A stretch of DNA of 64,000 nucleotides from Candidatus Krumholzibacteriia bacterium (GTDB taxonomy: Bacteria; Krumholzibacteriota; Krumholzibacteriia; JAJRXK01): NCBI GenBank assembly GCA_041484665.1, contig JBGPIA010000001.1, positions 64,001 to 128,000 of the forward strand. Reading direction: 5' to 3'. Positions 28,599 through 44,644 of the stretch are shown here, in pieces. Within the stretch, counting starts at the first letter, position 1. Each line of letters opens with the position of its first letter. Position numbers and translations under genes: made by a program. The notes under the pieces were generated by a model. That model worked only from the letters and a program-made list of their open reading frames with translations. It was not told the origin of the DNA and searched no databases.

Positions 28599-29999
28599 TC
28601 AGAAGGCCAGCGGATGCCCAGCGGCAGCATGGCTCGCCTCGGCCATCCCCTCCGCGAGCGTGGGGTGCGGGTGCACGATGCGCGAGAGCTCCTCGTTGGT
28701 GGCCTCCAGGCCCAGCAGCGCGCACGCCTCGCCGATCAGATCGGTGGCGTGCGGCCCGATGATGTGCACGCCCAGCAGCTCGTCATACCTGCACTCCCTG
28801 ACCAGCTTGATGAAACCGCCCGCCTCGCCCAGGATGCGCGCCTTGCCGCTGGCGGCCCACGGGAAGCTGGCGGCCACGACGTCGTAGCCCCGGGCTTTCG
28901 CCGCCGCTTCGGTGAGCCCAATGCTGGCCACCTCGGGGTGGCAGTACGTGCAACCGGGGATCTTGTCGTAGTCCAGCGGCCGCGTGGGAACGCCGGCGAT
29001 GGTCTCGGCCGCGACGATCCCTTCGGCCGACGCCACGTGGGCCAGCCACGGGGTGTTGACGAGATCGCCGATGGCGTAGACCCCCGGGAGACTGGCGCGC
29101 ATGTTGCCGTCGACCATGACGTAGCCCTTCTCGAGCGCCACCCCGGTCTCCTCCAACCCACAGTTCTCGCTGTTGGGGGCGCGCCCCACCGCCACCAGCA
29201 GCACGTCGACTGCCAGCGCCTGCTCCTGCTTGCCCTGCTCGAGCAGCAGCTGCACGGCGTTGCCTTCGACCGTCGCGGACTTCAGAGTCGCGTTGGTGCG
29301 CACCTCGATGCCCTGCTTCTTGAAGGCGCGCGCCAGCTCCGCGCTCACGTCCTCGTCCTCGATGGGCAGTACGCGCGGGAGCATCTCGATCAAGGTCGTC
29401 TTGCTGCCGAAGCGCGCGAAGATCGAGGCGAACTCGGTGCCTACGGCACCCGCGCCGAGCACCGCCAGCCGCCGCGGGACGTCCTGGATCTGCAGGATGT
29501 GATCGCTGGAGAGGATGCGGCGGCCATCCGTAGGGAACGCGCGCATCTCACGCGGGCGGCTGCCCATCGCCAGGATGATGCCCTTGCGTGACCGGAGGCT
29601 GCGCGCCTTGCCGCTCTCGGTCACCTCCACCGTGGAGGGGCCGGTGAGCCGCCCGCGACCGCGCTCCACGCTGATCTTGTGCTTCTTGAAGAGGAACTCC
29701 ACGCCCTTGGCGTTCTTGCTGACGGCGTCGTCCTTGCTGCGCATCACGGCGGGGAAGTCGATTGTGGCGTCGCCGACGCGCACGCCGCACCGCCCAGCGT
29801 CCCGGATCTGTGTCAGCAGGTCGGCGGCGTGCAGCATCACTTTGGTGGGGATGCAACCCCTCAGCAGGCAAGTGCCCCCCAGACGATCGTCGAACTCGAC
29901 GACCGCCGTGCTGAGACCCAATTGCGCACCCCGGATCGCCGCCACGTAACCGCCGGGTCCGCTTCCGATCACGACCAGGTCGTACTCGCGGTCTGCCAC
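28599..29999 (-). CDS. lpdA: Dihydrolipoyl dehydrogenase (E3)
   Basis: GSGPGGYVAAIR, GGTCLLRGCIPTK, HPHPTLAE; GTG start with AAGGAG upstream. Confidence 0.96.
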   Translation of the reverse strand: MADREYDLVVIGSGPGGYVAAIRGAQLGLSTAVVEFDDRLGGTCLLRGCIPTKVMLHAADLLTQIRDAGRCGVRVGDATIDFPAVMRSKDDAVSKNAKGVEFLFKKHKISVERGRGRLTGPSTVEVTESGKARSLRSRKGIILAMGSRPREMRAFPTDGRRILSSDHILQIQDVPRRLAVLGAGAVGTEFASIFARFGSKTTLIEMLPRVLPIEDEDVSAELARAFKKQGIEVRTNATLKSATVEGNAVQLLLEQGKQEQALAVDVLLVAVGRAPNSENCGLEETGVALEKGYVMVDGNMRASLPGVYAIGDLVNTPWLAHVASAEGIVAAETIAGVPTRPLDYDKIPGCTYCHPEVASIGLTEAAAKARGYDVVAASFPWAASGKARILGEAGGFIKLVRECRYDELLGVHIIGPHATDLIGEACALLGLEATNEELSRIVHPHPTLAEGMAEASHAAAGHPLAF

Positions 30000-30310: not shown

Positions 30311-30607
30311 TTGCAAGGAGATGCCCGGCCAATGCGGGCCGAGCAGGTGAAGTGGCAGGAGATCGAGGGGGAAGGCATCCTCGTGAACCTCGAGACGGGC
30401 TACTATTTCAGCCTCAACCCGGTCGGCCTCTTCATCTGGAGCCACTGCGACGGTCAGCAGACCTGCCGGCAGATCGCCGCGGGTCTGGTCGAGCACTTCG
30501 ACGTGGACGAGGTGACGGCCTACCGGGATGTGGAGAGCTTCCTCGCGCAGATGGACGCCGAGGGCTTGCTTCGCGTGCTCCCTCCCCGCACGCCCGCGGA
30601 GCGCTGA
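30311..30607 (+). CDS. PqqD-family RiPP recognition element (lasso B1-like); start 30311 (TTG) or 30332 (ATG)
   Basis: EIEGEGILVNLETGYYFSLNPVGLFIW...IAAGLVEHFDV...DVESFLAQMDAEGLL, typical RRE pattern. Confidence 0.9.
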   Translation: MQGDARPMRAEQVKWQEIEGEGILVNLETGYYFSLNPVGLFIWSHCDGQQTCRQIAAGLVEHFDVDEVTAYRDVESFLAQMDAEGLLRVLPPRTPAER

Positions 30608-30621
30608 GTCCGAGGGCTCTC

Positions 30622-31044
30622 GTGCGGCTTGCGCGCTATTCATCTCCCGCTACCTGGCGCCGCTGTTGGCGCATGTTGCGAACCTGGTGGACGATGCCCA
30701 GCCGCATCCGCCGGCTGCCGTTGGATCAGCTGTTGGCCACCCTCGATCCACGCGGGCCGGTTCCGGCGGAGCGACCGGACACCGCCATAGAGATCGCCGA
30801 GATGGCTCGGTTCCTCCTGTACCGCACACCGCTGCCGCTACATAACACCTGCATGGTGCGCAGCCTCACCCTGTATCACTGCCTGCGCGCCGAGGGTGCC
30901 CCGGCCTCGGTCGTTTTCGGCGTGAAGCCGGGGAAGGAGATCCGCGAGGGACATGCCTGGCTTGAGCTTCGGGGAGAGCCTTACCTCGAGCCGGATGCGC
31001 GCCGCCGCGGATTTTCTCCGATTTTTCGCTATCCGCAGGACTGA
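30622..31044 (+). CDS. Lasso peptide B2-type transglutaminase-like leader peptidase
   Basis: CMVRSL (catalytic Cys), VVFGV, GHAWLE (His, Glu); C-terminal part of ORF 30004..31044. Confidence 0.88.
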   Translation: MRLARYSSPATWRRCWRMLRTWWTMPSRIRRLPLDQLLATLDPRGPVPAERPDTAIEIAEMARFLLYRTPLPLHNTCMVRSLTLYHCLRAEGAPASVVFGVKPGKEIREGHAWLELRGEPYLEPDARRRGFSPIFRYPQD

Positions 31045-31063
31045 TCGGGATGGCCGGCTTGCC

Positions 31064-32053
31064 GTGAGCATCGTCCGGAGCTTCCAACTCCACGGGGAGC
31101 GGATCCGCATCGAGGCGCAAAGCGAGCCGTGGGCGGACTCCGTCGACGAGATCCTCGGCGCCTACCGCACGGTCGAGGAGGCCCGGGACGAGGCGACGAT
31201 TCGCGTCGCGCTCGCGGGAGAGCAACATCCCGCGCGCCTTCCCGCAGACCTTGAGCTGCGGTCCCGCTTCGAGGATCTGGAGTTTTGGTCCACCCGGGAC
31301 CACAGCGTTGTGTGGATCGATGTCCACGGCCGCGGGTGGGTCCGCGTCCAACCTGAGGCGGGAGAGATCGACGCCCGGCTGGCTCTCGACCCGCAGGCGG
31401 ACGGCTGGCTGGTGGCACACCACGCGTTCTATCCAGCGCTCCTGGAGGTCCTCAAGGAACGCGGGATGTTTCCCCTTCACGCCGGATTGGTCGCGCAGGG
31501 GGCAGGTGAGGGAGCGGAAGGTCTGCTCGTCTGCGGCGCCTCCGGCGCCGGCAAGACGACGCTCACGCTGGCACTGGCAGGGAAAGGCTGGTCGCTGCTG
31601 GGGGACGACACCTGCTTCCTGCGCAGTCGGGCAGGCGGCGTGGAGGGATTGGCCTTCTGGGAGGATCTCCACGTGACCGAGTCCACCCTGGATCGGTTCC
31701 CCGCGCTGTCGTTCCTGCGCCGCCAGCCGGTCCGGCGCGGTAACTGGAAGCGGCACTTCGGAATCCACGAGCTTTCTCAGCTCAAGGTGGCGGAGCGGGC
31801 ACCCCTGCGCTGGCTCTTGTTCCCCAGGGTCTGTGGCGTGCCCGCGACCGTGATCGATCCGCTCACTGGGGCGGAGGCGGTCCGCCGACTGGCACCGCAG
31901 AGCATGATCCCGATCCGGCCGGCCGTGGTGGCCGCCCAGCTGGCGGTGCTTGCGCAATTGGGGCGCACCGTCCGGGCGGCCGAGGTGCGGATGGGCACCG
32001 ATCTCGATGAGGTGGTTGGCGTTGTACACACTTTTCTGGCGCTCAGAGATTGA
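31064..32053 (+). CDS. HPr kinase-related P-loop kinase (RiPP tailoring type)
   Basis: PLHAG, Walker A GASGAGKTT, LLGDD, like kinases of phosphorylated lasso peptide clusters. Confidence 0.82.
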   Translation: MSIVRSFQLHGERIRIEAQSEPWADSVDEILGAYRTVEEARDEATIRVALAGEQHPARLPADLELRSRFEDLEFWSTRDHSVVWIDVHGRGWVRVQPEAGEIDARLALDPQADGWLVAHHAFYPALLEVLKERGMFPLHAGLVAQGAGEGAEGLLVCGASGAGKTTLTLALAGKGWSLLGDDTCFLRSRAGGVEGLAFWEDLHVTESTLDRFPALSFLRRQPVRRGNWKRHFGIHELSQLKVAERAPLRWLLFPRVCGVPATVIDPLTGAEAVRRLAPQSMIPIRPAVVAAQLAVLAQLGRTVRAAEVRMGTDLDEVVGVVHTFLALRD

Positions 32054-32218
32054 ACTTCTACCCCGGCTTGTGATAACCTCGTGAACAGGAACTCTCTCTG
32101 AACCGGGTTGATCATCCAACCTGAGTGACGGCTCCCCGACAACCCGGGCGCCTATCCAACTCTCGACAACTTCGTCCGCGCTGCCGCAAGCAGCACGCGG
32201 CGCACCCAAGGAGGATCC

Positions 32219-35200
32219 ATGCGATTGGCAAGAGCTAAGTGGCTTGCTGGCGCGTTGCTGCTGGTTCCTGCGCTGGCGAGCGGGGCCCAGTCCCCGACCA
32301 GCCGGCCGCCCGTGACACCGGCTGCGGCAGGCGACGGCGCGCAGATCGTGCGTGACGCGCTGGCTTCCTGGGACGGCTGGAGGCCCGGGGCCTCGCCGCA
32401 AGCGGCTCTGCGCGTCAACGCGATGCCGAGCACCTATGGCGCGGACACTGGCTCGCCCCAGCCCGCCTCGTGGATCGGCCGAGACAATATTCTCTGGGGA
32501 AACGTGACGGGCGGGACGGCCCCCTACACCTACACGGTCGCGTTCGATGACGGCAGCCCGGCTGCCTCCGGCGCCGTCGCCGACCGGCGCTACATCGTCG
32601 TGCACCACTCGTACACGACGCTGGGTCCCAAGTTCGTGACGTTGACCGTGCAGGACAACGTGGGAGCGACCGACACGGAGACCTTTCGCATCGACGTCGG
32701 CCCCTACGGCATCCAGTCGCGCGTCCAGGCCGCCATCGAGGACGGCCTGCGCTACCTGTACCTGACGCAGCTGTCCAGCGGCCGCTGGAACGCGCCGGCC
32801 TCCGAAGGCATCCACGCGCTGGCGTTCCAATTGCGCAATCACGACAAGAGCGCCAACCCGACGAACGACATCTACGCGGAGACGCTCCAGGCCTTCTGGA
32901 ACAACATCTTCTCCAGCATGACCCGGTTCCCCATCGGCGCCCAACCCGCTGGCAATCCGGACACCAACGGCAATGGCTACTCCCTCTACGCCAACGGATT
33001 CACGCAGTGCTACAACCACGGAATCCTGATGCTGGCCATGGCCGGGATCAAGGACCTCAACGAGGTCGTCACCGTGGGTAGCGAGGCGGGCCGCACGATC
33101 AAGGATGTCCTGCAGGACATGATCGACCTCGCGGCGTACTCGCAGACCGAGACCGGCGTGGAGCGCGGCGGCTGGCGCTACACCCTGGTCACGTCCAACT
33201 CCGGCAGCGACAACTCGGCCGTCCAATGGGTCGTCCTGGGTATGGTGGCCAGCGAGGGCAGGGGCCTGACGATCCCGGCGTTCGTGAAAACCGAGCTGGA
33301 GATCTGGACGCTCTACAGCCAGGGGGCCGACGGTGGCTTTGGCTATACCGACAAGAACTTCTGGAACAACATCGCCAAGACCGGCTCGGGGCTCATGCAG
33401 CTGGCGTGGCTGCACTACGCACCGACCTCCGCGCAGGTGCTGGCCGCCGCCAACTTCCTGAACGCCCACTGGACGCTCCAGTCCGATAACTTCGGCTACG
33501 CGGAGATGTTCTACACCAACGAGTACGCGATGTACGCCGTGAAGAAGGGGCTCGAGTCGTTCTCGCCGCCCATCTCGTTCATCGCCGCGCACGACTGGCA
33601 GGACGAGTTCAACAAGACACTCGTCTACGACGCGCTCAGCGACTACGACGGCGTGGGCGGGATCGCGTACAACAACGACTTCAACGAGCAGATCTACGGC
33701 ACCGGCGACCTGGTCGACGGACGCTGGACCTCGTCCTACTGGCTCGGCTCCAACGACTACAGCCTGGTGACGGCGGCCCGCGTCCTGACGCTGACCGCTG
33801 GGGTCAGCAGCCTCGTGCCCGTGGCGAACTGCACGGTCACGCCGCCCTCGGCAGGGCCGGGCGTCACCATCACCCTGGACGGCACCGGCTCCTTCCATCA
33901 GGACCCCAACCACGAGATCGTGCAGTACCTCTGGGACTTCGACGCGTCCAACGGAGTCAATTTCGCTCCGCCGGACGGCGTGGGTTCCGTCGTCACCACC
34001 AGCTACTCGCTGGGAGTGGGCGAGCTGTCGCGCACCTTCACGGTGACGCTGCTCGTGCGCGACAACGCGGTGCCGCCCGTGGAGCGCCAGACCACCTGCC
34101 GGGTGGTGATCAGCCGGGAGAACCACCCGCCGGTGGCCGTGCCCGGCGGGCCGTACGCCGCCTGCGTCGGACAGCGGATCTGCGTCGACGGCAGCGGCAG
34201 CTACGACCCCGATGCCGGTGACTTCGTCGCCGAGTACCACTGGGACCTCGACGGAGACGGCCAGTTCGACGATTTCGACGGACCGGCCACCTGCGTGACC
34301 TTCCCGGGGCTCTACGACGGATTCATCGGCTTGCAAGTCGTGGACAGCTTCGGCGTCCCCAGCCAGAACAGCGGCGCCGTAGTCCGGATCTTCACCGCGC
34401 TCGGTGACCTGAGCACTGCGGACTCCGACCTGGTCGTCGACAGCGATGCCGGCTGCGTCCAGGGAGGCCAGACGTGCGTCACGGGCACCTACCGCGTGCT
34501 CAGCGACGATCCCACGTACGTGGTGGCGGCAGCGCGCGTGGACTTCTTCCTGGACGACCCGACCAATCCGGTGAACCGCATCGCGACGTTCACGGACAAC
34601 AACCTGGTGGGCGGCATGACGCTGAGCCATCAGGCCTGCTTCAACCGGCCGGACAACCTGGCGCACGCCGTATTCATGGTGCTCGATCCCAATCAGGTCC
34701 TCAACGAGTGCGTCGAGACCGACAACGTCGCCGTGCACCGTTTCGCGTGCGGGTGCGACGCGCAGCTCGCCGACCTTGCGCTGGTCGGATACGAGACCGT
34801 GTCGTGGGATCCCGGCACTCTCATCTGGGAGGTCCGGGTCAGCATCAAGAACAACGGCCCGGGCACGGCGCACGACGTCAACGCCACGCTCATGGAGGAC
34901 ATCCCCTGGGTGACTCCCGTGGACGGAGCCAGCAGCTACGGGGACATCGCGTCGGGCGACACCAAGTTCGGGGACAGCTTCACGCTGGACCTGACCGGCC
35001 GTCCGGGCGCGGGTGGCTTCAACGTGTTCTTCGACGTATTCTACACGGACAACTGCCAGACGGCCCACGAGGTCCGTCTCGACCCCGAGGCCGTCACCCC
35101 TGGTGAGAATGGCCGCAGCGCGCTGCGGACGTACGCGCTGAGCCAGAACTCCCCCAATCCCTTCAACCCGCGGACGATGATCTCCTTCACGCTGGCCAAT

Positions 35201-35404
35201 CCCGGCCACGTGAAGCTGGAGGTCTTCGACTTGCGTGGCCGTCTGGTCAAGACCCTGGTCGACGCCAATCTCGCGGCGACGCAGCACAGCGTCGACTGGG
35301 ACGGCACCGACCTCACCGGACAGCCCGTGAGCTCTGGCCTGTACTACTACCGCCTGAACGCGGCTGACTTCTCGCAGACTCTCAAGATGACGCTCGTGAA
35401 ATAG
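32219..35404 (+). CDS. Large secreted multidomain protein: PKD-like, alpha/alpha-barrel (prenyltransferase/terpene cyclase-like), two PKD, CARDB-like, FlgD-Ig C-terminal domain
   Basis: AAGGAGG RBS; signal peptide; AIEDGLRYL..TQLSSGRW, GGWRY, DNSAVQW, SQGADGGFGY; LDGTGS..YLWDFD and YHWDLDGDGQFDD; SQNSPNPFNPRT...SGLYYYRL. Confidence 0.8.
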   Translation: MRLARAKWLAGALLLVPALASGAQSPTSRPPVTPAAAGDGAQIVRDALASWDGWRPGASPQAALRVNAMPSTYGADTGSPQPASWIGRDNILWGNVTGGTAPYTYTVAFDDGSPAASGAVADRRYIVVHHSYTTLGPKFVTLTVQDNVGATDTETFRIDVGPYGIQSRVQAAIEDGLRYLYLTQLSSGRWNAPASEGIHALAFQLRNHDKSANPTNDIYAETLQAFWNNIFSSMTRFPIGAQPAGNPDTNGNGYSLYANGFTQCYNHGILMLAMAGIKDLNEVVTVGSEAGRTIKDVLQDMIDLAAYSQTETGVERGGWRYTLVTSNSGSDNSAVQWVVLGMVASEGRGLTIPAFVKTELEIWTLYSQGADGGFGYTDKNFWNNIAKTGSGLMQLAWLHYAPTSAQVLAAANFLNAHWTLQSDNFGYAEMFYTNEYAMYAVKKGLESFSPPISFIAAHDWQDEFNKTLVYDALSDYDGVGGIAYNNDFNEQIYGTGDLVDGRWTSSYWLGSNDYSLVTAARVLTLTAGVSSLVPVANCTVTPPSAGPGVTITLDGTGSFHQDPNHEIVQYLWDFDASNGVNFAPPDGVGSVVTTSYSLGVGELSRTFTVTLLVRDNAVPPVERQTTCRVVISRENHPPVAVPGGPYAACVGQRICVDGSGSYDPDAGDFVAEYHWDLDGDGQFDDFDGPATCVTFPGLYDGFIGLQVVDSFGVPSQNSGAVVRIFTALGDLSTADSDLVVDSDAGCVQGGQTCVTGTYRVLSDDPTYVVAAARVDFFLDDPTNPVNRIATFTDNNLVGGMTLSHQACFNRPDNLAHAVFMVLDPNQVLNECVETDNVAVHRFACGCDAQLADLALVGYETVSWDPGTLIWEVRVSIKNNGPGTAHDVNATLMEDIPWVTPVDGASSYGDIASGDTKFGDSFTLDLTGRPGAGGFNVFFDVFYTDNCQTAHEVRLDPEAVTPGENGRSALRTYALSQNSPNPFNPRTMISFTLANPGHVKLEVFDLRGRLVKTLVDANLAATQHSVDWDGTDLTGQPVSSGLYYYRLNAADFSQTLKMTLVK

Positions 35405-35477
35405 TCGACACCCGCGTGGGGTCGCCCCCAGGGCGGCCCCGCCTGACACGTACGAACTCGGAGGAAAGATCTCAACG

Positions 35478-35588
35478 ATGGAAACGCCCAGCAGGGAGCG
35501 CCGTCCCTACGAGTCCCCGGTGGTCACCAAGCACCAGAGCCTCGCGGACATCACGCTCTTCACGAACTTCGGTCCGCCGGGCAGCTGA
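35478..35588 (+). CDS. RiPP precursor 1 (36 aa) METPSRERRPYESPVVTKHQSLADITLFTNFGPPGS
   Basis: GGAGG RBS; YxxPxVxxxQxxxxxT lasso-type leader; paralog 390 bp downstream; below ORF-track cutoff. Confidence 0.85.
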   Translation: METPSRERRPYESPVVTKHQSLADITLFTNFGPPGS

Positions 35589-35609
35589 GCCCGCGGCACA
35601 TCGGAGACG

Positions 35610-35646
35610 AGGCCCTCAGCCCGCCGGGCAGAGGGCCTTTCGTTTT
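35610..35646 (+). terminator. Rho-independent terminator after precursor 1
   Basis: AGGCCCTCaGCCC-gcc-GGGCaGAGGGCCT followed by TTCGTTTT. Confidence 0.8.
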
Positions 35647-35783
35647 CCCCCCGGCCCCGTCGGCAAGCGTCCGGCCGTGCGCAGTGCGCGGGCAGCCCGC
35701 GGCGCGGGTCGTCCGCAGCGGGAGCAATCGGGAATCTGGGGGCATGACCGGTCGCGGGGGCGGGGGCCGCCGGGGGGGCCGGG

Positions 35784-35813
35784 TTGTCCGCGCGGTGCGC
35801 GCCGTGGTAGAAT
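35784..35813 (+). promoter_or_regulatory. Putative sigma70 promoter for precursor 2
   Basis: TTGTCC-18 nt-TAGAAT with extended -10 TG. Confidence 0.5.
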
Positions 35814-35868
35814 GGATGCCATGGATGAGAGGGGGCGCCCAACCGCAGCATCCCGTAGAGGAGTCCCG

Positions 35869-35994
35869 ATGTCGGCAGATATTTCGGCCAGCCAGGGGTC
35901 CCCGGACCGTCGACCGTACGAGTCACCGGCGATCACCAAGCACCAGAGCCTCAAGGAAATCACCCTCTTCACGAACTTCGGGCCGCCGAGCTGA
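35869..35994 (+). CDS. RiPP precursor 2 (41 aa) MSADISASQGSPDRRPYESPAITKHQSLKEITLFTNFGPPS
   Basis: AGAGGAG RBS; same leader motif and near-identical core as precursor 1; 3' end of ORF 35416..35994. Confidence 0.85.
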   Translation: MSADISASQGSPDRRPYESPAITKHQSLKEITLFTNFGPPS

Positions 35995-36068
35995 GAGCCG
36001 GCGACTCTCCCGAACGAGCAGTCGCGTCTCAAACCTCCGTCGCTCTCGCATGATCGGGTGAATCGGAC

Positions 36069-38378
36069 GTGGGGCGCCCTTCCCCGGGCGCCCCCGGTCG
36101 TCTGTGCCCTGCGCCGTTGCGCTGGTTGGAGAGGCTCGTGCCAGAATCCGTGCGTCGCATCCTCCGTTCCCCGGCCGACTGGGCGCGGGACTCTGCCCGC
36201 TGGCTGGTGGCGATCGTGGCGCTGGTCGTGCCAGCACGGCCCGCCATCGCGCCTGCCGGAAGCAACGCGTGGACCCAGGACGCCGGCCCGTACGGCGGCC
36301 GCATCCTGTGCCTGTTGGTCCACTCCAGCAGTCCATCGAAACTCGTGGCGGGGACGGAGGCTGGTGGCCTGTACGTGAGCGGGGACGGCGGCCAGACCTG
36401 GCAATCGCGCAGCCAGGGCCTCGGCCTGCTCACGGTCAACGACGTGCAAGCCGTTCCGCTGGGCACCAGCACCATCTGCGTGGCGACCAACAACGGTGTG
36501 TACCGCTCGGACAACCTCGGCCAGAGCTGGACGCAGCGCAGCGGCGGGCTGGGATCGCTGCTCACCACCTGCCTGGCGATCCACCCAACCAATGTCGCGC
36601 GGATGCTGTGCGGCACGGTGAACGGGCTCTACGCCACTGCCGATGCCGGCGTGTCGTGGACTCCGGTCAACGCCGGCCTCACCAACAGTTCGGTCGAGCG
36701 CATCCTCTGGGACGTCGGTGGCAACGCGATCTACGCGTGCACCGACGGCGGCGCGTTCCTCAACACCGATCCCCCGGGCACGTGGCTGCCGCGCAGCAAC
36801 GGGCTCAGTGGTCTGGCGCTGTTCACGCGCCAGCTCGTCACCAACCCGGCCGCATCGAGCGAGCTCTACCTTGCCACCTACGGCGGCGTGTTCCACAGCT
36901 TCAGCGGGGGCGGGAGCTGGGAGCTGCACAGCGCGGGCCTGACCGATACCCGGGCGCAAGCACTCTGGATCGACCCCGCCGATGGCATGCACCTGCTGGT
37001 GGGCACCGAGAGCGGAGTGTTCGAGACCTTTGACGGCGCGCTGCACTGGGCCGCGGCCAGTGCGGGCCTCACCGATCGGGTCGTGCGCAGCCTGGCCTAC
37101 GACGGCACGTCGATGCTATGCGGCACGTTTTATCGCGGCGTGCAGCGCCGGACCGGGTCCACCTGGGCGCCGATCAACCAGGGACTGGCCAATACGTTCC
37201 TGCAGGAGATCGCCGTCGACAGCTCGGGGAGCCTGATCGCCGCAGCCGGCTACGGCGGTGTCTATCGCAGCGCGGACGTCGGGAGCAGCTTTGCGCTGGG
37301 CGACGCCGGAATCACCGTGCCCGATGTGCGCACGGTCTGCTTCGATCCCACCAATCCGCAGGTTGTCTTCGCCGGCGCGAACTACGGTGGCGTGTACAAG
37401 TCGACCAACGGTGGCACGACATTCTCGCTGGTGGGGCTGGCCGGGGAGACCGTGCGGGCGATCCGCGTGCACCCGACCAACTCGCTGATCGTCTACGCCG
37501 GGACCTACGATGGCGTCTTCCGCAGCGACAACGGCGGCGGGCTGTGGGTGGCGCGCAGCGCGGGCATGACCGCGGACAACGTCAACGACCTGGAGCTGGA
37601 TCCCACCAACCCCGAGGTCATCTACGCCGGGATCTACCTGGGCTACGTGTACAAGACCAGCAACGGCGGGTTGAGCTGGACGCAGAAGACCAACGGGCTG
37701 GGCGCCAGTATCGTGTTCGACCTGGCCGTCGATCCCGCCGATCCGCAGGTCGTGCTGGCCGCCGGCTTCGAGGGCAAGGGGATCTGGCGCAGCGCGGACG
37801 GCGGCGACACCTGGCACGACGCCAGCACGGGGCTGCCCAACAAGAGCATCTGGAAAGTGAAATTCGACCCGTTCGACGCCTCGCGCGCGTACGCGGCCAC
37901 CCAGGACGGCGTCGCGCGCAGCCTCGACGGGGGCGCCACCTGGGCGGACCTGAGCAACGGACTGCTCGTGAAGGACGTCCGCGACATCGCAGTGGATCCG
38001 CTGAGCTTCCGGACGCTGCGCGCGGCGACCTTCGGCGGTGGCCTCTACACGTTCACGGACATGGCCACGGCGGCCCCCCCCGTCCGGCCGGCGGCGGCCG
38101 AGCTGCATCCCGGCTTTCCCAACCCCTTCAATCCCAGCACGACGCTGGCCTTCGAGCTGCGCGGGGCGGACGCCCGGCGCGTACGCCTGGACGTCTTCGA
38201 CGCGCGCGGGCGCCGCGTGCGTACGCTGCTGGATGCGCCAGCCGATCCGGGCGTGCACCGGGTGACGTGGGATGGGCGCGACGACACCGGCTCGGGTGTC
38301 GCGGGTGGCGTCTACCTGGCGCGGCTGGCCGTCGACGGCCAGGGTGCGGGAGTTCAAAAGCTGACGCTGCTCAAATGA
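36069..38378 (+). CDS. Secreted BNR/VPS10-like beta-propeller repeat protein with FlgD-Ig C-terminal domain (start may be 36138)
   Basis: Repeated Asp-box SxDGGxTW and GVYKS motifs; PNPFNPST...GVYLARL tail. Confidence 0.85.
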   Translation: MGRPSPGAPGRLCPAPLRWLERLVPESVRRILRSPADWARDSARWLVAIVALVVPARPAIAPAGSNAWTQDAGPYGGRILCLLVHSSSPSKLVAGTEAGGLYVSGDGGQTWQSRSQGLGLLTVNDVQAVPLGTSTICVATNNGVYRSDNLGQSWTQRSGGLGSLLTTCLAIHPTNVARMLCGTVNGLYATADAGVSWTPVNAGLTNSSVERILWDVGGNAIYACTDGGAFLNTDPPGTWLPRSNGLSGLALFTRQLVTNPAASSELYLATYGGVFHSFSGGGSWELHSAGLTDTRAQALWIDPADGMHLLVGTESGVFETFDGALHWAAASAGLTDRVVRSLAYDGTSMLCGTFYRGVQRRTGSTWAPINQGLANTFLQEIAVDSSGSLIAAAGYGGVYRSADVGSSFALGDAGITVPDVRTVCFDPTNPQVVFAGANYGGVYKSTNGGTTFSLVGLAGETVRAIRVHPTNSLIVYAGTYDGVFRSDNGGGLWVARSAGMTADNVNDLELDPTNPEVIYAGIYLGYVYKTSNGGLSWTQKTNGLGASIVFDLAVDPADPQVVLAAGFEGKGIWRSADGGDTWHDASTGLPNKSIWKVKFDPFDASRAYAATQDGVARSLDGGATWADLSNGLLVKDVRDIAVDPLSFRTLRAATFGGGLYTFTDMATAAPPVRPAAAELHPGFPNPFNPSTTLAFELRGADARRVRLDVFDARGRRVRTLLDAPADPGVHRVTWDGRDDTGSGVAGGVYLARLAVDGQGAGVQKLTLLK

Positions 38379-38543: not shown

Positions 38544-41500
38544 TCACGAGCGCGCACGTGCTGGAACGGAACCTGGGGCGTGGCGCGAACCTGCGTCCCG
38601 GGAGATCGCCAGGCCGGCGAGCAGCCACAGCAAGGCCGCGGCCAAGAGCGGCGTACCGCGTGTCGGGTCACGGCTCGCCAGAGAGCCCTCCGCAGGCTGC
38701 GCGGCTCCTGCGTGCCCCCAACCGGCCGCCGAGAGAGCCGCCAGCCGCACGGCATCCACGCCGCGCGCGCGCAACTCTGCGGCCGGATCGTCGGCGAACG
38801 CCACGTCCAGCCCTGTGGCGCCCGTGCTGTCGATGACGCGCACGGGGTCCGCCAGCGACGGGCCCACTGGACGTAACACGCCGGGCACGACGGCCTCCAG
38901 CGCGACGGTGTCGCCCAGTGCGTCCACCAGCGCCAGTCCGCTCGCATGTCCATCCGCGAGCCCTCCCGCCGTCGTCAGGCCTGGCTCGTTCGCCGGGACG
39001 AGCGACCAGGGTGGTGTCGACGACTCTACGCGCAATCGGGGAGCGCTCCCTCCCTCCCAGCGCACGCGCGGTTGCTCCTGTCGCGTGAGCCACGCCAAGA
39101 GCTGCGCCACCGCCGCGGGCCAGCGCGCGTCCTCTGGATTCCACGGCGGGCCCGCTGTGCTGGCCAGCACGGCCATACGGCCGGGGCCAAACGAACCCAG
39201 CGCCAGCAGCGGGTCGCGCTGCAACCCCGCGCTCCAGGCCACCTGCGCCAGTTGCGGCGTCAGAGCCACATAGCGTACTGCCCCCGCCGGCAGCAGCGCG
39301 CTCCACGCCGCCAGCTCCGCGCGCGCGGGCTGCGGCGCGGCGACGAATCGATCGCGTGGTGCCGAGTCCACCGTGCGCGCCAGTACCTCACCGAGCTCCT
39401 GGAAGCGGCGCAGCACCAGATGGCGCCCGCCGGTGCGCGCGGCCAGCTCGCGCAACGCCGGCGTGCCCCGCGTTCCGACCTCGATCGCCGTCACCGGCAG
39501 GTCGCCGACGGCGTCGAGCCAGGACTGCAGCGACTCGTCGCCGGTCACACCATCGCTGAGGACGACGATGCGCCGCGCGCGCGGGGGCTTTGCCGCGACG
39601 CCGGCGCTCCCATCGCCAGCAGCGGCGGCCTGCAGGAGACCGGCGGCTTCCTGCAGCGCCGGGCGCAGCACCGTGCCGCCCGAGGCGTGCACGCCCCGCA
39701 GTGCCTCCTGCACCTGGGTCAGCGTGCGCCGCGGCTGCGGCGGGAGCGTGCGCAGCACCCGGTCGGCGAAGGCGACCAGCCCGACGCGCTCGCTGGCCTC
39801 GGCGGCGCGCAGCGCGCCGGAGAGGGCGAGCAGAGCGCGGTCGAGCTGCGAGACGCCGTCCTCCAGCGTCGCCATGCTGCCGGAGACGTCCAACAGGAAG
39901 ACCCAGTCCCCACGCGAGGGATCGCGCTCCTCGCGCACCTGCAGGCGGACGGGAAGCCGTTCCTCCAGCGCCAGACGGCCGCTCTCACCCCGCTGCAGCC
40001 AGTCGCCCGGGCCCGCGAGCAGCAGGAGCCCCGTGCCCAGGTCCATGGCGCGCAAGACCTGGACCTGCAGCGCTGCCACCAGCGATTCCGGACACGCGTC
40101 GAGCACCCAGACGTCGGGACGGCCGCCGGCGGGCGGCTGTGGCAAGGAGGTCGTGCGCTCGCCCGAGGCGGCGGTCCAGCGAACCGTCGGCAGTGGCCCC
40201 GTGCTCCAGCCGTAGGCGAGGATGTCGTCCTGCGGCCAGACGTCGCGAGGCCCCGCAGCCTCCGGCTGCAGCTCGGCGGTGATGGTGTGGGCGCCCGTGG
40301 CCAGCGGTGGCAGCGGCAAGGCCAGCCGCACGAGCGCTCCGTTCGCTTGCGGGTCGCGCTGCGCCACGCCGTCGCGCACCAGCGCGGCGAGATCGCGGTC
40401 CAGCAGGACGCGCCCGTCGAGCGTCACGGCGAGCCGGCGCTCGGCGTCGCCCGGATCGAGCGCCAGCGTCAGCGTGCGACCCGCCCCGGCGGCCTGCTGC
40501 TCGACGCGCAGCTGCGTGACGGACGCGTCGCCGCTGCGCCCCGCCGGCGCTGCTGCGATGGAGCATTCACCGACGGGCAGTGACGCAGCAAGCGCTTGGG
40601 GCGTGTCCTCGAAGCGGCCGTCGCTGACGAGCAGCACCCGCGGCGCACGCAGGCGCGTGGCGCCCATCAGCCGGCGCAACGGCGCCGCCAAGCGCGTGTG
40701 CGGTGGCGTGGGGAGATCCCGCAGGCCCGCCTGCAGCCAGCGTTCGAGCTCCACGGGAGTGAACGGCCAGGCCCGGCGAGGGGTGGGTGGGAGCAGCCAC
40801 CGACCGTCCTCCCCGTCGAGCGCCGCCACGGCCAGCCGCTGCCCGGGCCCGGCCGCGCCCAGGAACTCCCGCAGCGCCGCAGCGGCGGCCGCAGGGGCCA
40901 GCGCGCGGCAGCTGGGAGATGCGTCGACGATGAGCACGCAGTCCCCGGCCGACGGCCGCAGCGCCAGGGCCAGCAGGGCCAGCAGCGCGATGCCCAGGCC
41001 CGCGCGGCGACGGCGCGGCCACCTGGCCAGCGCCAGCGCCGCGGCCGAGACCAACCAGGCGGCCGCAGCGAGCCAGGGCGAGAGGGCAAGGTCCGTCCCC
41101 GCTCCGCCGGTGCGGCCTCCTGTGGCGGCGGCCGCCAGCGCGCCCGGCGACACAGGCTCGCTGCCGGCGGCCGGCAGTTCGCCGGGACGCGTCAGAGCCG
41201 CGGGCCAGTTGAACCGCGGGGAGGAGAGGCCAGGCCCCGCGCACACGTCCTGGGCGGGCAGCAGCGCCCGCGCCACGCGCAGGGCCGCCAGGGCCGGGCC
41301 GAGCGATCCATCGGGGGCTGCGGGGTCGGGCAGGTTCACGACCGCGGCACGGGACTCCCAGAGCAGGATCCTGCCCCCGGCCATCGCGGCCCACTGCACA
41401 CCCAAGTCGAGTACGCCGCAGGCGCGGGACACGCCCGCAAGGTCTAGCCCCGCCGCCGGCCCCGCGAACTCCAGCGCGCCCGACCCGTCGTCCAGCTGGG

Positions 41501-42728
41501 GGCCCGTACGGCTGGAACGGAGCTCCTCCAGCCGGAGGCCGGGAGCTGCGCCGGCCCGCGGCGCGATCCACTCCCAGCACAGGCTATCTGGGAAGGCCGG
41601 TGGCGCGTCGCCGACCACCACCAGGAGCTCGTGCTGGGCGCTGCCGGTCCGCCCGCGTTGGGCGCGCCACCGCGCCCACTCCGCCGCGTCGGGCCGCGGG
41701 GGCAGGCGCGCGCGGTCGACCCTGCGCAGGTCGATGGCCGGCCAGGCCTCCACGGCCGTTGCCCAGGGGGAGCCGGCTGCGGACACGAGCCAGACCAGAG
41801 GCGGCGCAGGCAACTCCAGCACCTGACGCTCGGCAGACGATTGCGTGAGCGGCGCAGCTCCCGGCAGAACGTGCGGTAGCGGGCCGTGCCGCGTGGCGCG
41901 GGACTCGAGCTCGACGGTGATCCGTCGTCGCGCACGGCGCCCGGGGTCCGCACCCGGCTCCGGCGGGCTGGGCGGCGTCGGCACGAGCGCCGGATCGATC
42001 TCGACTGCGCCGCGCCCCTGCGCATCGAGCGGGATCTCCTGCGAGGCACCGGCGGTCTCGGCCACGACGCTCGTGGTGGGGCCGGCACCCTCGACCGCCA
42101 CGCAGAGTCGACCGGCCAGGTCGAGATGCGCGAGCGACAATCGCGGGCCGGCCTCGCCGCCGGGCGCAGCGAGCCGGTGCGCTCGCCAGCGGCCCCGCGT
42201 TGCAGGCGGCTCTCGCCAGCAGAACACCTCCACTGCGCGCAGGGGATCGGGGGCGAGCGCGCACAGGAGCTCGCCCAGCGTCGGCCCGGCGGGGTCCACG
42301 GAGCTCTCCCGCGCCGAGGCCAGGTCCGGGAACGGACCGGTGGGCGACCGGCCCGCGCAGTAGATCTCCACCCCCGCCGCAGCGGCCGCCAACGCGGCGA
42401 TGGTCTCCTCCACGGGGCGGCGCGTCGCGTCAGGGGCCTCCAGCGTACCGGCGTCCAACAGCACCACCGCGCGCGACGGCAAGGCGGGCGAAGGGCGCAG
42501 CGGCGCCGCGAGCGCGCCGATCCAAAGCACCCCTGCTACCAGCGTCAGCCACGCCCGCGGATCGCGCCAATGGATGCGGCGGCGCGCCGGTGCGCGCCCG
42601 GGCTCGTCGGCGAACAGCCAGACGGGAGCGAATCGCTGCCGCAGCGCGCCGCCCCGTCGCAGCAGCAAGGCCACGACCAAGAGGAGTGGCACGAGCAACA
42701 ACAAGGAGACTGGACGCAACAAGCTCAT
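38544..42728 (-). CDS. Membrane-anchored VWA-domain protein (BatA-like N-terminus)
   Basis: N-terminal TMs; MIDAS-like DASPS...VSDG and DVSGSM...GGT...LSDG; C-terminal TM; next to DUF58/MoxR. Confidence 0.72.
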   Translation of the reverse strand: MSLLRPVSLLLLVPLLLVVALLLRRGGALRQRFAPVWLFADEPGRAPARRRIHWRDPRAWLTLVAGVLWIGALAAPLRPSPALPSRAVVLLDAGTLEAPDATRRPVEETIAALAAAAAGVEIYCAGRSPTGPFPDLASARESSVDPAGPTLGELLCALAPDPLRAVEVFCWREPPATRGRWRAHRLAAPGGEAGPRLSLAHLDLAGRLCVAVEGAGPTTSVVAETAGASQEIPLDAQGRGAVEIDPALVPTPPSPPEPGADPGRRARRRITVELESRATRHGPLPHVLPGAAPLTQSSAERQVLELPAPPLVWLVSAAGSPWATAVEAWPAIDLRRVDRARLPPRPDAAEWARWRAQRGRTGSAQHELLVVVGDAPPAFPDSLCWEWIAPRAGAAPGLRLEELRSSRTGPQLDDGSGALEFAGPAAGLDLAGVSRACGVLDLGVQWAAMAGGRILLWESRAAVVNLPDPAAPDGSLGPALAALRVARALLPAQDVCAGPGLSSPRFNWPAALTRPGELPAAGSEPVSPGALAAAATGGRTGGAGTDLALSPWLAAAAWLVSAAALALARWPRRRRAGLGIALLALLALALRPSAGDCVLIVDASPSCRALAPAAAAAALREFLGAAGPGQRLAVAALDGEDGRWLLPPTPRRAWPFTPVELERWLQAGLRDLPTPPHTRLAAPLRRLMGATRLRAPRVLLVSDGRFEDTPQALAASLPVGECSIAAAPAGRSGDASVTQLRVEQQAAGAGRTLTLALDPGDAERRLAVTLDGRVLLDRDLAALVRDGVAQRDPQANGALVRLALPLPPLATGAHTITAELQPEAAGPRDVWPQDDILAYGWSTGPLPTVRWTAASGERTTSLPQPPAGGRPDVWVLDACPESLVAALQVQVLRAMDLGTGLLLLAGPGDWLQRGESGRLALEERLPVRLQVREERDPSRGDWVFLLDVSGSMATLEDGVSQLDRALLALSGALRAAEASERVGLVAFADRVLRTLPPQPRRTLTQVQEALRGVHASGGTVLRPALQEAAGLLQAAAAGDGSAGVAAKPPRARRIVVLSDGVTGDESLQSWLDAVGDLPVTAIEVGTRGTPALRELAARTGGRHLVLRRFQELGEVLARTVDSAPRDRFVAAPQPARAELAAWSALLPAGAVRYVALTPQLAQVAWSAGLQRDPLLALGSFGPGRMAVLASTAGPPWNPEDARWPAAVAQLLAWLTRQEQPRVRWEGGSAPRLRVESSTPPWSLVPANEPGLTTAGGLADGHASGLALVDALGDTVALEAVVPGVLRPVGPSLADPVRVIDSTGATGLDVAFADDPAAELRARGVDAVRLAALSAAGWGHAGAAQPAEGSLASRDPTRGTPLLAAALLWLLAGLAISRDAGSRHAPGSVPARARS

Positions 42729-42765
42729 GGATCTCGCCGCAGGATCGTAGACGCGCACCGAGCGC

Positions 42766-43629
42766 TCAGGAGGTCACGACGAGGCCTGCGGCGCGCAGTG
42801 GGCCCATCAGCGCCGCCTCCCAGGATTGCGCGGCGTCCACGTCCACCACGCGCACGCCCGCCGCACGCAACGCCGCCGTACGCCGAGTCCGGTGGTGGAG
42901 CAAGCGCGCGCGTGCCGCGGCGACGGTCGGCGGGTCGAGGACCGTTTGCCGGCGCCCACGCCCCTCCGCGTCGAGCAACTCCACGGCCTCCCCCGTCGCC
43001 ACCAGCGGGTCGTCGGGATGGGTGAGCACGATCACCCAGCCCGGCGAGGGGCCCGCCAGCGCTGCGACCCAGCCCCCGGCGGGAGCGTCATCGAGGAAGT
43101 CGGTCAGCACGACACTCACCCCGCGTGGCGCGCCGCGCAGCAGCGACGCGAGCGCTGCGGCCGGTGCGCGACCGCCGCAGGCGAGCCCGCGCAGCCTTGC
43201 TGCAAGCATGGCGCTGCTGCTGCGGCCATGGGCCACCGTCACGAGCGTTCGAGGCGGGTCGGCCAGCGCCGAGAGGCGCACGTCCTCCAGCCCGGCCAGG
43301 CCGATCGCCGCGAGCGCGGTGGCGATCTCGCGCGCGCGGTCGTAGCGCTCTGGAAAGGCTGCGCCCATGGACCCGCTCGTATCCAGGATCAGGTGCAGGC
43401 GCTGCTCGCGATCGCGGCGGTAGGTGCGGACGACCGGGCGATCCAGTCGCGCCCACGCGCGGTGATCGATGCGCCTTGGATCGTCGCCGAGAGCGTAAGG
43501 GCGGTGCCCGGCCAGCGTCTGCCCCTGGCCGGTGAGCGCCGTCGAGACGCTGCCGGGACGTTCGCCGAGGGCGAGCTTCTCGGAGGCCAGCGCCAGCCGG
43601 TCGAGCAGCGGCCCTCCCACCTCACGCAT
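42766..43629 (-). CDS. DUF58 domain protein
   Basis: HRPYALGDDPRRIDHRAWAR, LILDTSGSM, VVLTDFL. Confidence 0.88.
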   Translation of the reverse strand: MREVGGPLLDRLALASEKLALGERPGSVSTALTGQGQTLAGHRPYALGDDPRRIDHRAWARLDRPVVRTYRRDREQRLHLILDTSGSMGAAFPERYDRAREIATALAAIGLAGLEDVRLSALADPPRTLVTVAHGRSSSAMLAARLRGLACGGRAPAAALASLLRGAPRGVSVVLTDFLDDAPAGGWVAALAGPSPGWVIVLTHPDDPLVATGEAVELLDAEGRGRRQTVLDPPTVAAARARLLHHRTRRTAALRAAGVRVVDVDAAQSWEAALMGPLRAAGLVVTS

Positions 43630-44644
43630 CGGCTTGGACCTCGGACAACAGCCGCACGATCGCCTGCTCGATGGTGTCGCCCTCGGCCTCGCGCTCGTAG
43701 CGCAGCCGCAGCCTGTGTCGCAGCGCCGCAGGCGCGGCGGCCCGCACGTCCTCGAAGGCGATGTGCTCGCGGCCCGCGGCGAGCGCACGCACGCGCCCGC
43801 AGCGCAGCAGCGCCAGCATCGCGCGCGGCCCGGCGCCCTGGCGCAGCCCCCCGGCCACGCCGCGCGCTGCGCTCTGCGGGTGAGTGGCAAGCACCAGCCG
43901 CGCCGCGTAGCGCGCGACCGCGTCGGCGACGGGAACCTGCGCGGCCGCGGCAATCGCCTGCACCGTGCCCGCGGGCTCGAGCACGGCGCTCGGCAGCGCT
44001 GCTGTGCCCGCACCGTGCCGGCGGAAGATGTCCACCAGCGCGGCCTCGCCCGGGGACTCGATGCGCGCCTGTAACAGGAAGCGGTCCAGCTGCGCCTCGG
44101 GCAGCGGGTAGGTGCCTTCCAGGTCGAGGGGATTCTGCGTGGCCACGACGAAGAAGGGGCGCGGCAGCGCGAAGGTCGCGCGGCCGATGGTAACCGTCCC
44201 CTCCTCCATGGCCTCCAGCAGCCCCGCTTGCGTGCGCGGGGTGGCGCGATTGATCTCATCGGCCAGGATCACGTTGGCAAAGACGGGCCCTTGGTGGACG
44301 TCGAAGCGCACGCTCCCGTCGGCGCCGCGCGCGAGCACCTCGCTTCCGGTGATGTCGGTGGGCATCAGATCCGGCGTGAACTGCACGCGCGAGAATCGGC
44401 CGCCCAACAACGATCCGAGCGTACGCACCAACAGCGTCTTGCCCAGACCGGGCACGCCCTCGATCAGGATGTGCCCGCCGCCGAGCAAAGCCCACAGCAC
44501 CTCGTCGATGAGCGGCTCCTGCGAGACGATGATCTGCGCGAGCCCGCTGCGCAGCGCCGCGTGGGCCCGGGCGAACGTGTCGAGGGCCGCGTCGGACGCC
44601 GCCTTGGAGCGTAGGTTGCTGGTAGGCCCGCTGGATTGGGTCAT
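43622..44644 (-). CDS. moxR: MoxR family AAA+ ATPase
   Basis: GVPGLGKT, RVQFTPDLMPTD, DEINRA, ATQNP.EGTYPLPEAQLDRF. Confidence 0.95.
   Translation of the reverse strand: MTQSSGPTSNLRSKAASDAALDTFARAHAALRSGLAQIIVSQEPLIDEVLWALLGGGHILIEGVPGLGKTLLVRTLGSLLGGRFSRVQFTPDLMPTDITGSEVLARGADGSVRFDVHQGPVFANVILADEINRATPRTQAGLLEAMEEGTVTIGRATFALPRPFFVVATQNPLDLEGTYPLPEAQLDRFLLQARIESPGEAALVDIFRRHGAGTAALPSAVLEPAGTVQAIAAAAQVPVADAVARYAARLVLATHPQSAARGVAGGLRQGAGPRAMLALLRCGRVRALAAGREHIAFEDVRAAAPAALRHRLRLRYEREAEGDTIEQAIVRLLSEVQADA

Follow-up and report, generated by a model that had tools for sequence, protein, structure and literature searches.

Does a gene cassette with the leader-processing proteins of lasso peptides, and no lasso cyclase, make a peptide product, and what ties its tiny precursors to the large secreted proteins encoded around them? 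The question is raised by a block of genes in a 64,000-nucleotide stretch (hereafter the window) of a Candidatus Krumholzibacteriia bacterium (GenBank assembly GCA_041484665.1, contig JBGPIA010000001.1, positions 64,001 to 128,000). We propose that a cyclase-less, lasso-derived pathway probably makes a linear peptide, F-pT-NFGPP(G)S, which probably acts outside the cell with a co-inherited beta-propeller protein. Seven open reading frames (ORFs) on the forward strand were confirmed between lpdA and a group of VWA/MoxR genes. These bear out the content that a first-pass annotation of the window had given for the block (leader-binding protein, B2 peptidase, kinase, 1061-amino-acid (aa) protein, two peptides and propeller protein), as well as its statement that the block itself holds no cyclase, nucleotidyltransferase, radical SAM enzyme or exporter. 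The block and its flanks are as follows.

28599-29999, reverse strand: lpdA, left flank of the block
30311..30607, forward strand: recognition element (RRE) for RiPPs (peptides made by the ribosome and modified after translation), a PqqD-family leader-binding protein (PF05402, 1.3e-21); TTG start, alternative ATG at 30332
30622..31044, forward strand: lasso-type B2 leader peptidase, 140 aa (PF13471, 5.7e-14; NF033537, 50.5 bits versus a cut-off of 33)
31064..32053, forward strand: HprK-like peptide kinase, 329 aa, with His, Walker A and DD motif; matches HprK structures by profile
32219..35404, forward strand: 1061-aa protein with PKD, (alpha/alpha)6 barrel, Ig-like domains, domain X and FlgD_ig tail
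34754..35098, forward strand: domain X, a CARDB/Ig-like module of 115 residues (residues 846-960 of the 1061-aa protein), directly before the FlgD tail
35478..35588, forward strand: precursor 1, 36 aa, predicted core FTNFGPPGS
35869..35994, forward strand: precursor 2, 41 aa, predicted core FTNFGPPS
36138..38378, forward strand: 746-aa propeller protein with signal-peptide-like start, BNR/Sortilin-Vps10 match, double 7-bladed beta-propeller and FlgD_ig tail
38544-44644, reverse strand: VWA/MoxR genes, right flank of the block

The leader cassette and the cyclase question

The genome of the window (G000, 93.65% complete) was analysed as one of a comparison set of 208 genomes of the class. The RRE and the B2 peptidase are each the only one of their kind in G000. 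In a comparison with the Protein Data Bank (PDB) the RRE matches TbiB1, PbaB1 and the 9x8z RRE, and it is 57-58% identical to the copies in two relatives, G001 and G008. The B2 peptidase is 50-55% identical to its copies in the same two genomes and keeps its motifs intact, namely the Cys (NTCMVRS), the His (GHAW) and a Glu after them. The kinase is 50-51% identical to theirs; its His139, Walker A Lys164 and Asp181 are invariant among 13 aligned kinases, and its match to TIGR04352 (3.8e-8) is far under the cut-off. B2-like matches reached E 3.4e-12 or better in 11/208 genomes, a count that excludes 37 genomes with weaker PF13471 matches, and precursors were found in 10 of the 11. Both G001 and G008 carry RRE, B2 and kinase in this order at the same lpdA-adjoining place; next come an ABC pair and, in convergent orientation, a nucleotidyltransferase.

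A true lasso pathway with its cyclase encoded in trans would agree with the lasso-type leader, RRE and B2, and with the six full Asn-synthase-family genes of G000. However, all six score as amidotransferases (209-341 bits as exopolysaccharide (EPS) amidotransferases versus 55-77 bits as lasso cyclase), and the N-terminal glutaminase Cys is kept in the four that were checked. The lasso cyclase model NF033535 was over its cut-off in 0/15 genomes, none of its matches lay near a cluster, and G008 (97% complete) gave no match at all. When 16 loci were scanned for a cyclase, the sole hits were PurF glutaminase domains (3/16 loci), and an Asn-synthase hit was seen in none of 21 real metagenome loci, though many of these are shorter than 4 kb. 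Moreover, the window cores are only 8-9 residues long and neither contains Asp or Glu. Among 37 family cores, nine have an Asp/Glu at position 7-9 with a tail of at least five residues, none of them from the window, and the first residue is F, L or Y in all 37. A cyclase in trans is rejected on the amidotransferase scores, the NF033535 result and the PurF-only locus hits, and a lasso product, already contradicted, is hardly credible. Nor is this a decayed lasso cluster, because none of the 15 genomes has a cyclase over the cut-off and the cores have no ring Asp/Glu. The first-pass annotation had proposed lasso leader machinery working without a cyclase, and had named cyclase-bearing orthologous clusters as the finding that would overturn this. 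The genome-wide search supports the proposal, and no orthologous locus carries a cyclase. The system is not a lasso peptide, having neither cyclase nor ring acceptor.

Precursors and the predicted phosphosite

A six-frame scan added a third precursor to the two in the window.

G000:C16:59758-59925, reverse strand: third precursor, same FTNFGPP start, 23-residue core

This precursor has no maturation genes beside it and its core ends in Pro. Four compared copies of the T-L-F-T-N-F-G-P-P stretch differ pairwise at 2-5 codons, all of the changes being synonymous, and database homologues (n = 4) share the FTNFGPPS ending; therefore the two window peptides are coding. The tail of the third core reads STYDIFGQP, and the cores of G042 and G101 end in STYDIDKQ and TTYDFDKE, an (S/T)TYD tail motif common across families (L001:14759-14926, L021:5325-5456, L038).

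The window precursors read Y-E-S-P-A-I-T-K-H-Q-S-L-K-E-I-T-L-F-T, so that a lasso-type leader, YxxPx(L/V/I)...T(-2), is present alongside the discrete RRE and B2. When the cut is placed after Leu, Tyr falls at -17 and Thr at -2. A Tyr at -17 also marks the B2 site in the Bsf lasso cluster of Bradymonas sediminis (bsfA-K-B1-B2-N-C-D), in which, according to the text of Duan et al. (2023; PMC10368454), BsfK modifies Ser3 or Thr3 with help from the RRE. B2 is therefore predicted to cut after Leu, which would release FTNFGPPS and FTNFGPPGS.

A precursor profile run over the comparison set gave 25 real matches across 14 genomes, with an intact leader (Y..P.......L..[IVL]TL) in 22 of the 25. In all 22 intact precursors the second core residue, at a distance of 19 residues from the leader Tyr, is Ser or Thr; in six of them the last residue is Ser. 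Twelve metagenome-only precursors were excluded from the Ser/Thr count because their search pattern required S/T. Weak matches in G022, G098 and G050 (E 0.02-0.04) were dropped as no precursor-like ORF was present, and, out of 25 pattern hits in metagenomes, four (L091, L103, L107, L113) were discarded as chance finds. The Thr(-2) has been lost in three precursors, of G004, G006 and G009; no B2 was found in these three genomes and no kinase orthologue in G006 and G009.

Where on the core would the kinase act? The LPP system of Paenibacillus alginolyticus (lppA-K-B-S-D-N), as described in the main text of Popov et al. (2026; PMC13381572), comprises an RRE, a kinase resembling HprK, an NTP transferase, an exporter and a SpI peptidase, and no cyclase. 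The leader consensus of LppA is YxxPxVLxHQxIxFETxxS, of which the final Ser (LppA phospho-Ser3) is the mapped phosphosite, with up to four phosphates (PMC13381572). Against this consensus the window precursors (Y1-P4-[VI]6-H9-Q10-T16-T19) match at Y, P, V/I, H, Q and T and do not match at L7, F14 and E15, and their final hydroxyl residue is Thr. Since Thr19 occupies the position of the LppA phospho-Ser, it would be the residue phosphorylated; with B2 in place of SpI the predicted cut falls one residue later, which makes the site core position 2.

The first-pass annotation had instead placed the phosphate on a C-terminal Ser, as a paeninodin-type kinase acting on FTNFGPP(G)S would do. Both window cores and the four database homologues end in Ser, kinases for a C-terminal Ser are documented for lasso precursors (text of PMC10368454), and LppK rejects Thr (main text of PMC13381572). 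However, the nearest kinases (G001, 50% identical) go with cores whose last residues are His and Ala, and the single precursors of G005 and G007 end in Pro, as does the C16 precursor of G000. As a family-wide site the C-terminal Ser was rejected, since it ends so few of the cores, and for the window we regard it as improbable. Given that Ser/Thr at position 2 is instead universal among the intact precursors, core Thr2 is the likely site, and we hold this with good confidence. Kinases from genomes whose cores have Thr2 are 31-51% identical to the window kinase, versus 23-25% for those from Ser2 genomes, a split that would fit a change of acceptor by lineage. That the product is a linear phosphopeptide, as the first-pass annotation had suggested, is very probable and the reading we adopt.

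By analogy with LPP and Bsf chemistry, the RRE would bind the YxxPxV/I leader, the kinase would phosphorylate core Thr2 once or more, and B2 would cut after Thr(-2)-Leu(-1). A nucleotidyltransferase encoded on another contig of G000 might conceivably then decorate the phosphate, and export would use an ABC-2 pair in most relatives and another route in G000.

G000:C10:24650-~25750, reverse strand: NTP_transf_5 nucleotidyltransferase, orthologous, KG...R...DxD motif kept

This gene product is 42% identical to the G001 and G008 copies. The nucleotidyltransferase lies within the B2 locus in 9/9 other genomes with B2 and precursor and in trans in G000; its absence, which had been read from the block as characteristic, is therefore not a trait of the system. 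The ABC-2 pair (PF01061) was seen in 6/9 fetched loci of relatives. A 1495-aa FlgD-tailed gene (G000:C10:20104-24591) converges on the displaced nucleotidyltransferase, and its protein is 35% identical to that of a G001 gene ~3 kb from a precursor (L118:10027-14001).

The displaced nucleotidyltransferase and the loss of the ABC pair from G000 could also mean that the pathway is a decaying remnant whose peptides are no longer matured. Loss in steps is visible at the lpdA site of other genomes, with only the RRE and nucleotidyltransferase left in G006 and G009 and only the RRE in G003 (L058:6524-7860, L059:9895-11165, L068:6885-7190). However, the RRE, B2 and kinase of G000 are intact with their catalytic residues, and its three precursors share an identical seven-residue core start with synonymous-only changes, so decay is a very improbable explanation here.

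Two further features were noted around the precursors.

35605..35648, forward strand: GC-rich hairpin and T-rich run, terminator-like, 3' of precursor 1 (-35 kcal/mol, z -3.1 versus mononucleotide shuffles)
35784..35813, forward strand: sigma-70-like site upstream of precursor 2, a consensus match only

The hairpin was not picked up by the terminator scan. Two sigma-70-like sites, one of them upstream of precursor 2, were found in the region versus 0.4 +/- 0.6 expected.

Secreted proteins beside the peptide genes

What do the large secreted proteins have to do with the peptide? As FlgD tails are common in G000, adjacency to any FlgD-tailed gene means little, and orthologues were tested instead. 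The start of the propeller protein was set as in database entry P0049; its propeller part spans 36258-38063, and G000 encodes a paralogous propeller on contig C7 near position 119103. Its structural model, with a mean predicted local distance difference test score (pLDDT) of 93, consists of two 7-bladed propellers. The closest structure is a GH74-like double propeller (Z 32.5, root-mean-square deviation (rmsd) 5.0, 581 aligned), on a par with single WD40 propellers. GH74 xyloglucanases have two catalytic aspartates; the propeller family has no Asp in invariant or 90%-conserved columns, and Tyr-rich loops recur (19 sequences, compared by alignment). Scoring six candidates per genome, we found propeller orthologues (core E 1e-60 or better) in 6/208 genomes (G000, G008, G046, G064, G070 and G087). 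Each of them lies beside the kinase or a precursor, downstream of the kinase in four and of the precursor in G008.

Domain X is the second recurring partner. Its Atlas leads (0.85 and below) are CARDB-like, and it is common to several unrelated precursor-adjoining genes (41-53% identity). Weak matches occur in 105/208 genomes. At E<1e-20 there are 12 copies in 7 genomes, all of which have precursor and kinase, and after these 12 the scores fall from 81 to 65 bits; eight of the copies are in or beside the cluster and one is at a contig start. A FlgD-type tail comes directly after domain X in 44 of the best 47 representatives drawn from 1.84 billion proteins. The N-terminal parts fused to it vary (barrel, S8 peptidase, fn3/VWA, a small unknown domain), and 41 compared parts fall into 18 groups. 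With 36 copies placed on a tree, 4 changes suffice to explain the system label, versus 12 in shuffles. The copies of G054 and G090, which belong to the same genus as G087 and have neither kinase orthologue nor precursor, fall within the group, where their branch is 0.86 long (100/100) versus ~0.1 for the G087 sisters. This long branch apparently reflects one event of relaxation; G090 is 81% complete.

The barrel of the 1061-aa protein appears less tightly bound to the system. In G008, locus L093 bridges two contig ends that share a 37-base overlap, which gives the order precursor, propeller and a 384-aa domain-X protein with another N-terminus; because domain X is kept there without the barrel, the barrel is the weaker coupled part. 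The 1061-aa protein has a signal-peptide-like start, judged by eye, and its AlphaFold model has a pLDDT of 77, with domain X partly under 50. Squalene-hopene cyclase is the nearest structural match to the barrel (Z 21.4, rmsd 3.5, 290 aligned), followed by GH76 hydrolases (Z 18.6). A phmmer search of the barrel against the PDB gave no match, and Foldseek of the whole 1061-aa model returned multi-domain noise only (TM 0.2 or less). The general-acid motif of type II terpene cyclases is DxDD. The barrel family has a conserved SDNS(A) and no DxDD there (position equivalence judged by eye), and no activity is assigned to it because SDNS stands where we would expect DxDD. Barrel matches occur in 8/208 genomes, with close copies in the cluster in G070 (1/3) and G087 (2/2). 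At L101, an N-terminal fragment of a 1061-aa orthologue follows an FTNFGP precursor.

Other genes recur near the precursors. A stand-alone squalene-cyclase-type barrel and a YdjY-like gene lie inside the peptide clusters of G070 and G087 (L029:17651-19480, L070:145-2106, L120:11862-13978), and G000 has both on another contig (G000:C4:71325-73905); the gene termed YdjY-like here has no Pfam hit. An S8 peptidase directly follows the precursor in G046, G070 and one metagenome locus (L114:5310-7895, L116:8181-11141, L112:2-1804), and the two complete genome copies of it also have domain X and a FlgD tail.

A three-chain model of the propeller, domain X and the last 30 residues of precursor 2, unmodified, gave a peptide score of 0.35 versus 0.05 for the best control and 0.05 with the propeller replaced. 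Model runs agreed in at least 35% of contacts, with a partner pLDDT of at least 37. In calibration the mark was reached by 116/157 solved and 2/215 mismatched pairs; at 0.60 or under it was reached by 18/157 and both mismatches, which is why support for a peptide-propeller contact is weak, scores of this size being graded weak and more often wrong than right. With the propeller replaced there was no sign of the peptide on domain X, which is evidence neither way. The model points, weakly, to the propeller rather than domain X as the binding partner.

The peptide and FlgD-tailed genes might simply have moved as a block between families, with the chemistry as proposed and no interaction between the products. 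FlgD-tailed genes make up ~5% of the G000 genome, the system genomes G001, G005, G007 and G042 are without both propeller and close domain X, some barrel copies have no RiPP genes in their vicinity (those of G124 and G126 and two of the three in G070), and the score of the complex model is weak, all of which agree with passenger genes. However, gene order varies while the parts stay together: domain-X gene, precursors and propeller in G000; precursor, propeller and domain-X gene in G008; kinase, propeller and precursor in G064. Moreover, domain X is kept while its fused N-terminal part changes, and a propeller orthologue was found in 0/194 precursor-less genomes. We therefore consider mere co-transfer unlikely. 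Synteny across three families supports the link between peptides and secreted proteins that the first-pass annotation had drawn, and what is new here is the conserved association of the peptide genes with the propeller and with a modular domain placed before the FlgD tail.

A number of observations nevertheless weigh against a secreted linear phosphopeptide that acts with the propeller. On the side of the chemistry, LppK did not phosphorylate an S3T variant (main text of PMC13381572) and the window cores have Thr. As they also end in Ser, a further or different site may exist in the window peptides. The Ser/Thr count at position 2 is partly biased, because all sequences from which the profile was made had S/T in that column. 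G006 and G009 retain one intact-looking precursor each without B2 or kinase, and no B2 was found in G087 (90% complete), in which the other system parts are all present. A tblastn search of G000 with the relatives' ABC-2 permease gave no match, although the genome has 11 unrelated ABC-2 matches. On the side of the partners, the propeller is missing from 5/10 genomes with B2 and precursor (G001, G005, G007, G042, G101) and domain X from 4/10; 3/12 close domain X copies have no precursor within ~8 kb; a single domain X clade is neither shown nor rejected (approximately unbiased test, p-AU 0.32); FlgD tails gave 202 tblastn hits among ~3959 called genes in G000; and kin genomes are not independent.

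How the peptide would act is accordingly put more cautiously than its chemistry. One tentative suggestion, somewhat short of even chances, is that the double propeller would bind it as a ligand, as part of a group of FlgD-tailed proteins that have domain X in common. A fuller version is an extracellular docking system in which the propeller would read F/L-pT/pS-x(x)-PP and domain X would recruit diverse secreted enzymes or adhesins in a dockerin-like manner; this is speculative and we rate it as rather unlikely. If true, a ribosomal peptide would organise or switch a secreted-protein complex and would not be an antibiotic. With an 8-residue synthesisable core and a candidate binding protein encoded next door, the question of function is directly testable.

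The right flank of the block (38544-44644, reverse strand) encodes a MoxR AAA ATPase, a DUF58-like gene and a 1400-aa VWA protein. Its GC content is 75.5% versus 66-70% in the peptide block, and these genes do not adjoin the cassette in the fetched relatives.

Comparison with known systems

Models for other pairs of a PqqD-family protein and an HprK-related kinase (HPr-rel-A, HPr-rel-B and SynChlorMet) share these two components with the window, but TIGR04352, TIGR04355 and TIGR04249 score 32.8 of 200, 19.2 of 200 and 22.5 of 125 bits, far under cut-off, and there is no radical SAM enzyme here. Paeninodin and pseudomycoidin share the RRE, B2, HprK-like kinase and NTP transferase; they differ in being cyclised and phosphorylated on a C-terminal Ser that is not conserved in the present family.

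The Bsf cluster is closer. As far as the text of the paper describes it, it shares an RRE-assisted kinase acting near the core N-terminus, acceptance of Thr, the Tyr at -17, a nucleotidyltransferase and an ABC transporter. It differs in having a cyclase, Gly1, Asp8, Ile(-2) and site 3, whereas the window has no cyclase, Phe1, Thr(-2) and a predicted site 2.

The closest likeness is to LPP. Judged by the main text of that paper, the two share a discrete RRE, a kinase of HprK-like type, an NTP transferase and the lack of a cyclase, together with an ABC exporter in most of our relatives. Both have a leader of the form Y..P.V..HQ.....T, with a hydroxyl residue 3 places past the Thr and 19 from the Tyr. 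The leader peptidase differs, being the SpI serine peptidase there and the B2 cysteine peptidase here, as do the cores (45 residues with Ser there, 8-9 with Thr here) and the exporter (MsbA-like there; an ABC-2 permease in relatives and none in the window block here). LPP clusters belong to Bacillota and have capsule-gene neighbours; ours lie outside Bacillota, with FlgD-tailed secreted-protein neighbours. Deletion of lppN changed nothing, and for LppN itself no product was observed; the paper calls the nucleotidyltransferase step unsolved and says that it is unknown what LPPs and phosphorylated lasso peptides do, and its main text has no mention of secreted, propeller or Krumholz (PMC13381572).

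Genomes of family f2 carry a parallel cassette of RRE, HprK-like kinase, peptidase and NTP_transf_5 without B2 (L060:6617-9702, L061, L062, L065, L075, L076). The peptidase is termed S24/S26-like for its SGSM motif; it has no Pfam hit. The RRE and NTP_transf_5 lie ~2 kb apart in many f2 genomes, and in L075 a small ORF contains a leader-like motif, YSKPVV. Two of these S24/S26-like queries (from f2, not LppS) gave no tblastn hit in G000. A second cassette, adjoining uvrA in G070 and G046, has an RRE-containing protein, a kinase-like gene and NTP_transf_5 and is apparently a separate system (L072:6262-10572, L073:71-4937).

The first-pass annotation had raised an undescribed class. LPP has overtaken that claim, as a published linear family with RRE, HprK-like kinase, NTP transferase and nearly the same leader (main text of PMC13381572). 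For B2-type cyclase-less clusters in this class, or their secreted partners, we found no description in the literature covered, which did not extend to subscription papers and supplements. Taken together, the chemistry is a B2-type variant of the class published in 2026. The cassette is not LPP as defined, with B2 rather than SpI, ABC-2 rather than an MsbA-like exporter and another phylum, yet by analogy it very likely works like one. The f2 loci indicate that, inside a single class, leader proteases of the B2 and the signal-peptidase-like kind can stand in for each other in cassettes of this sort.

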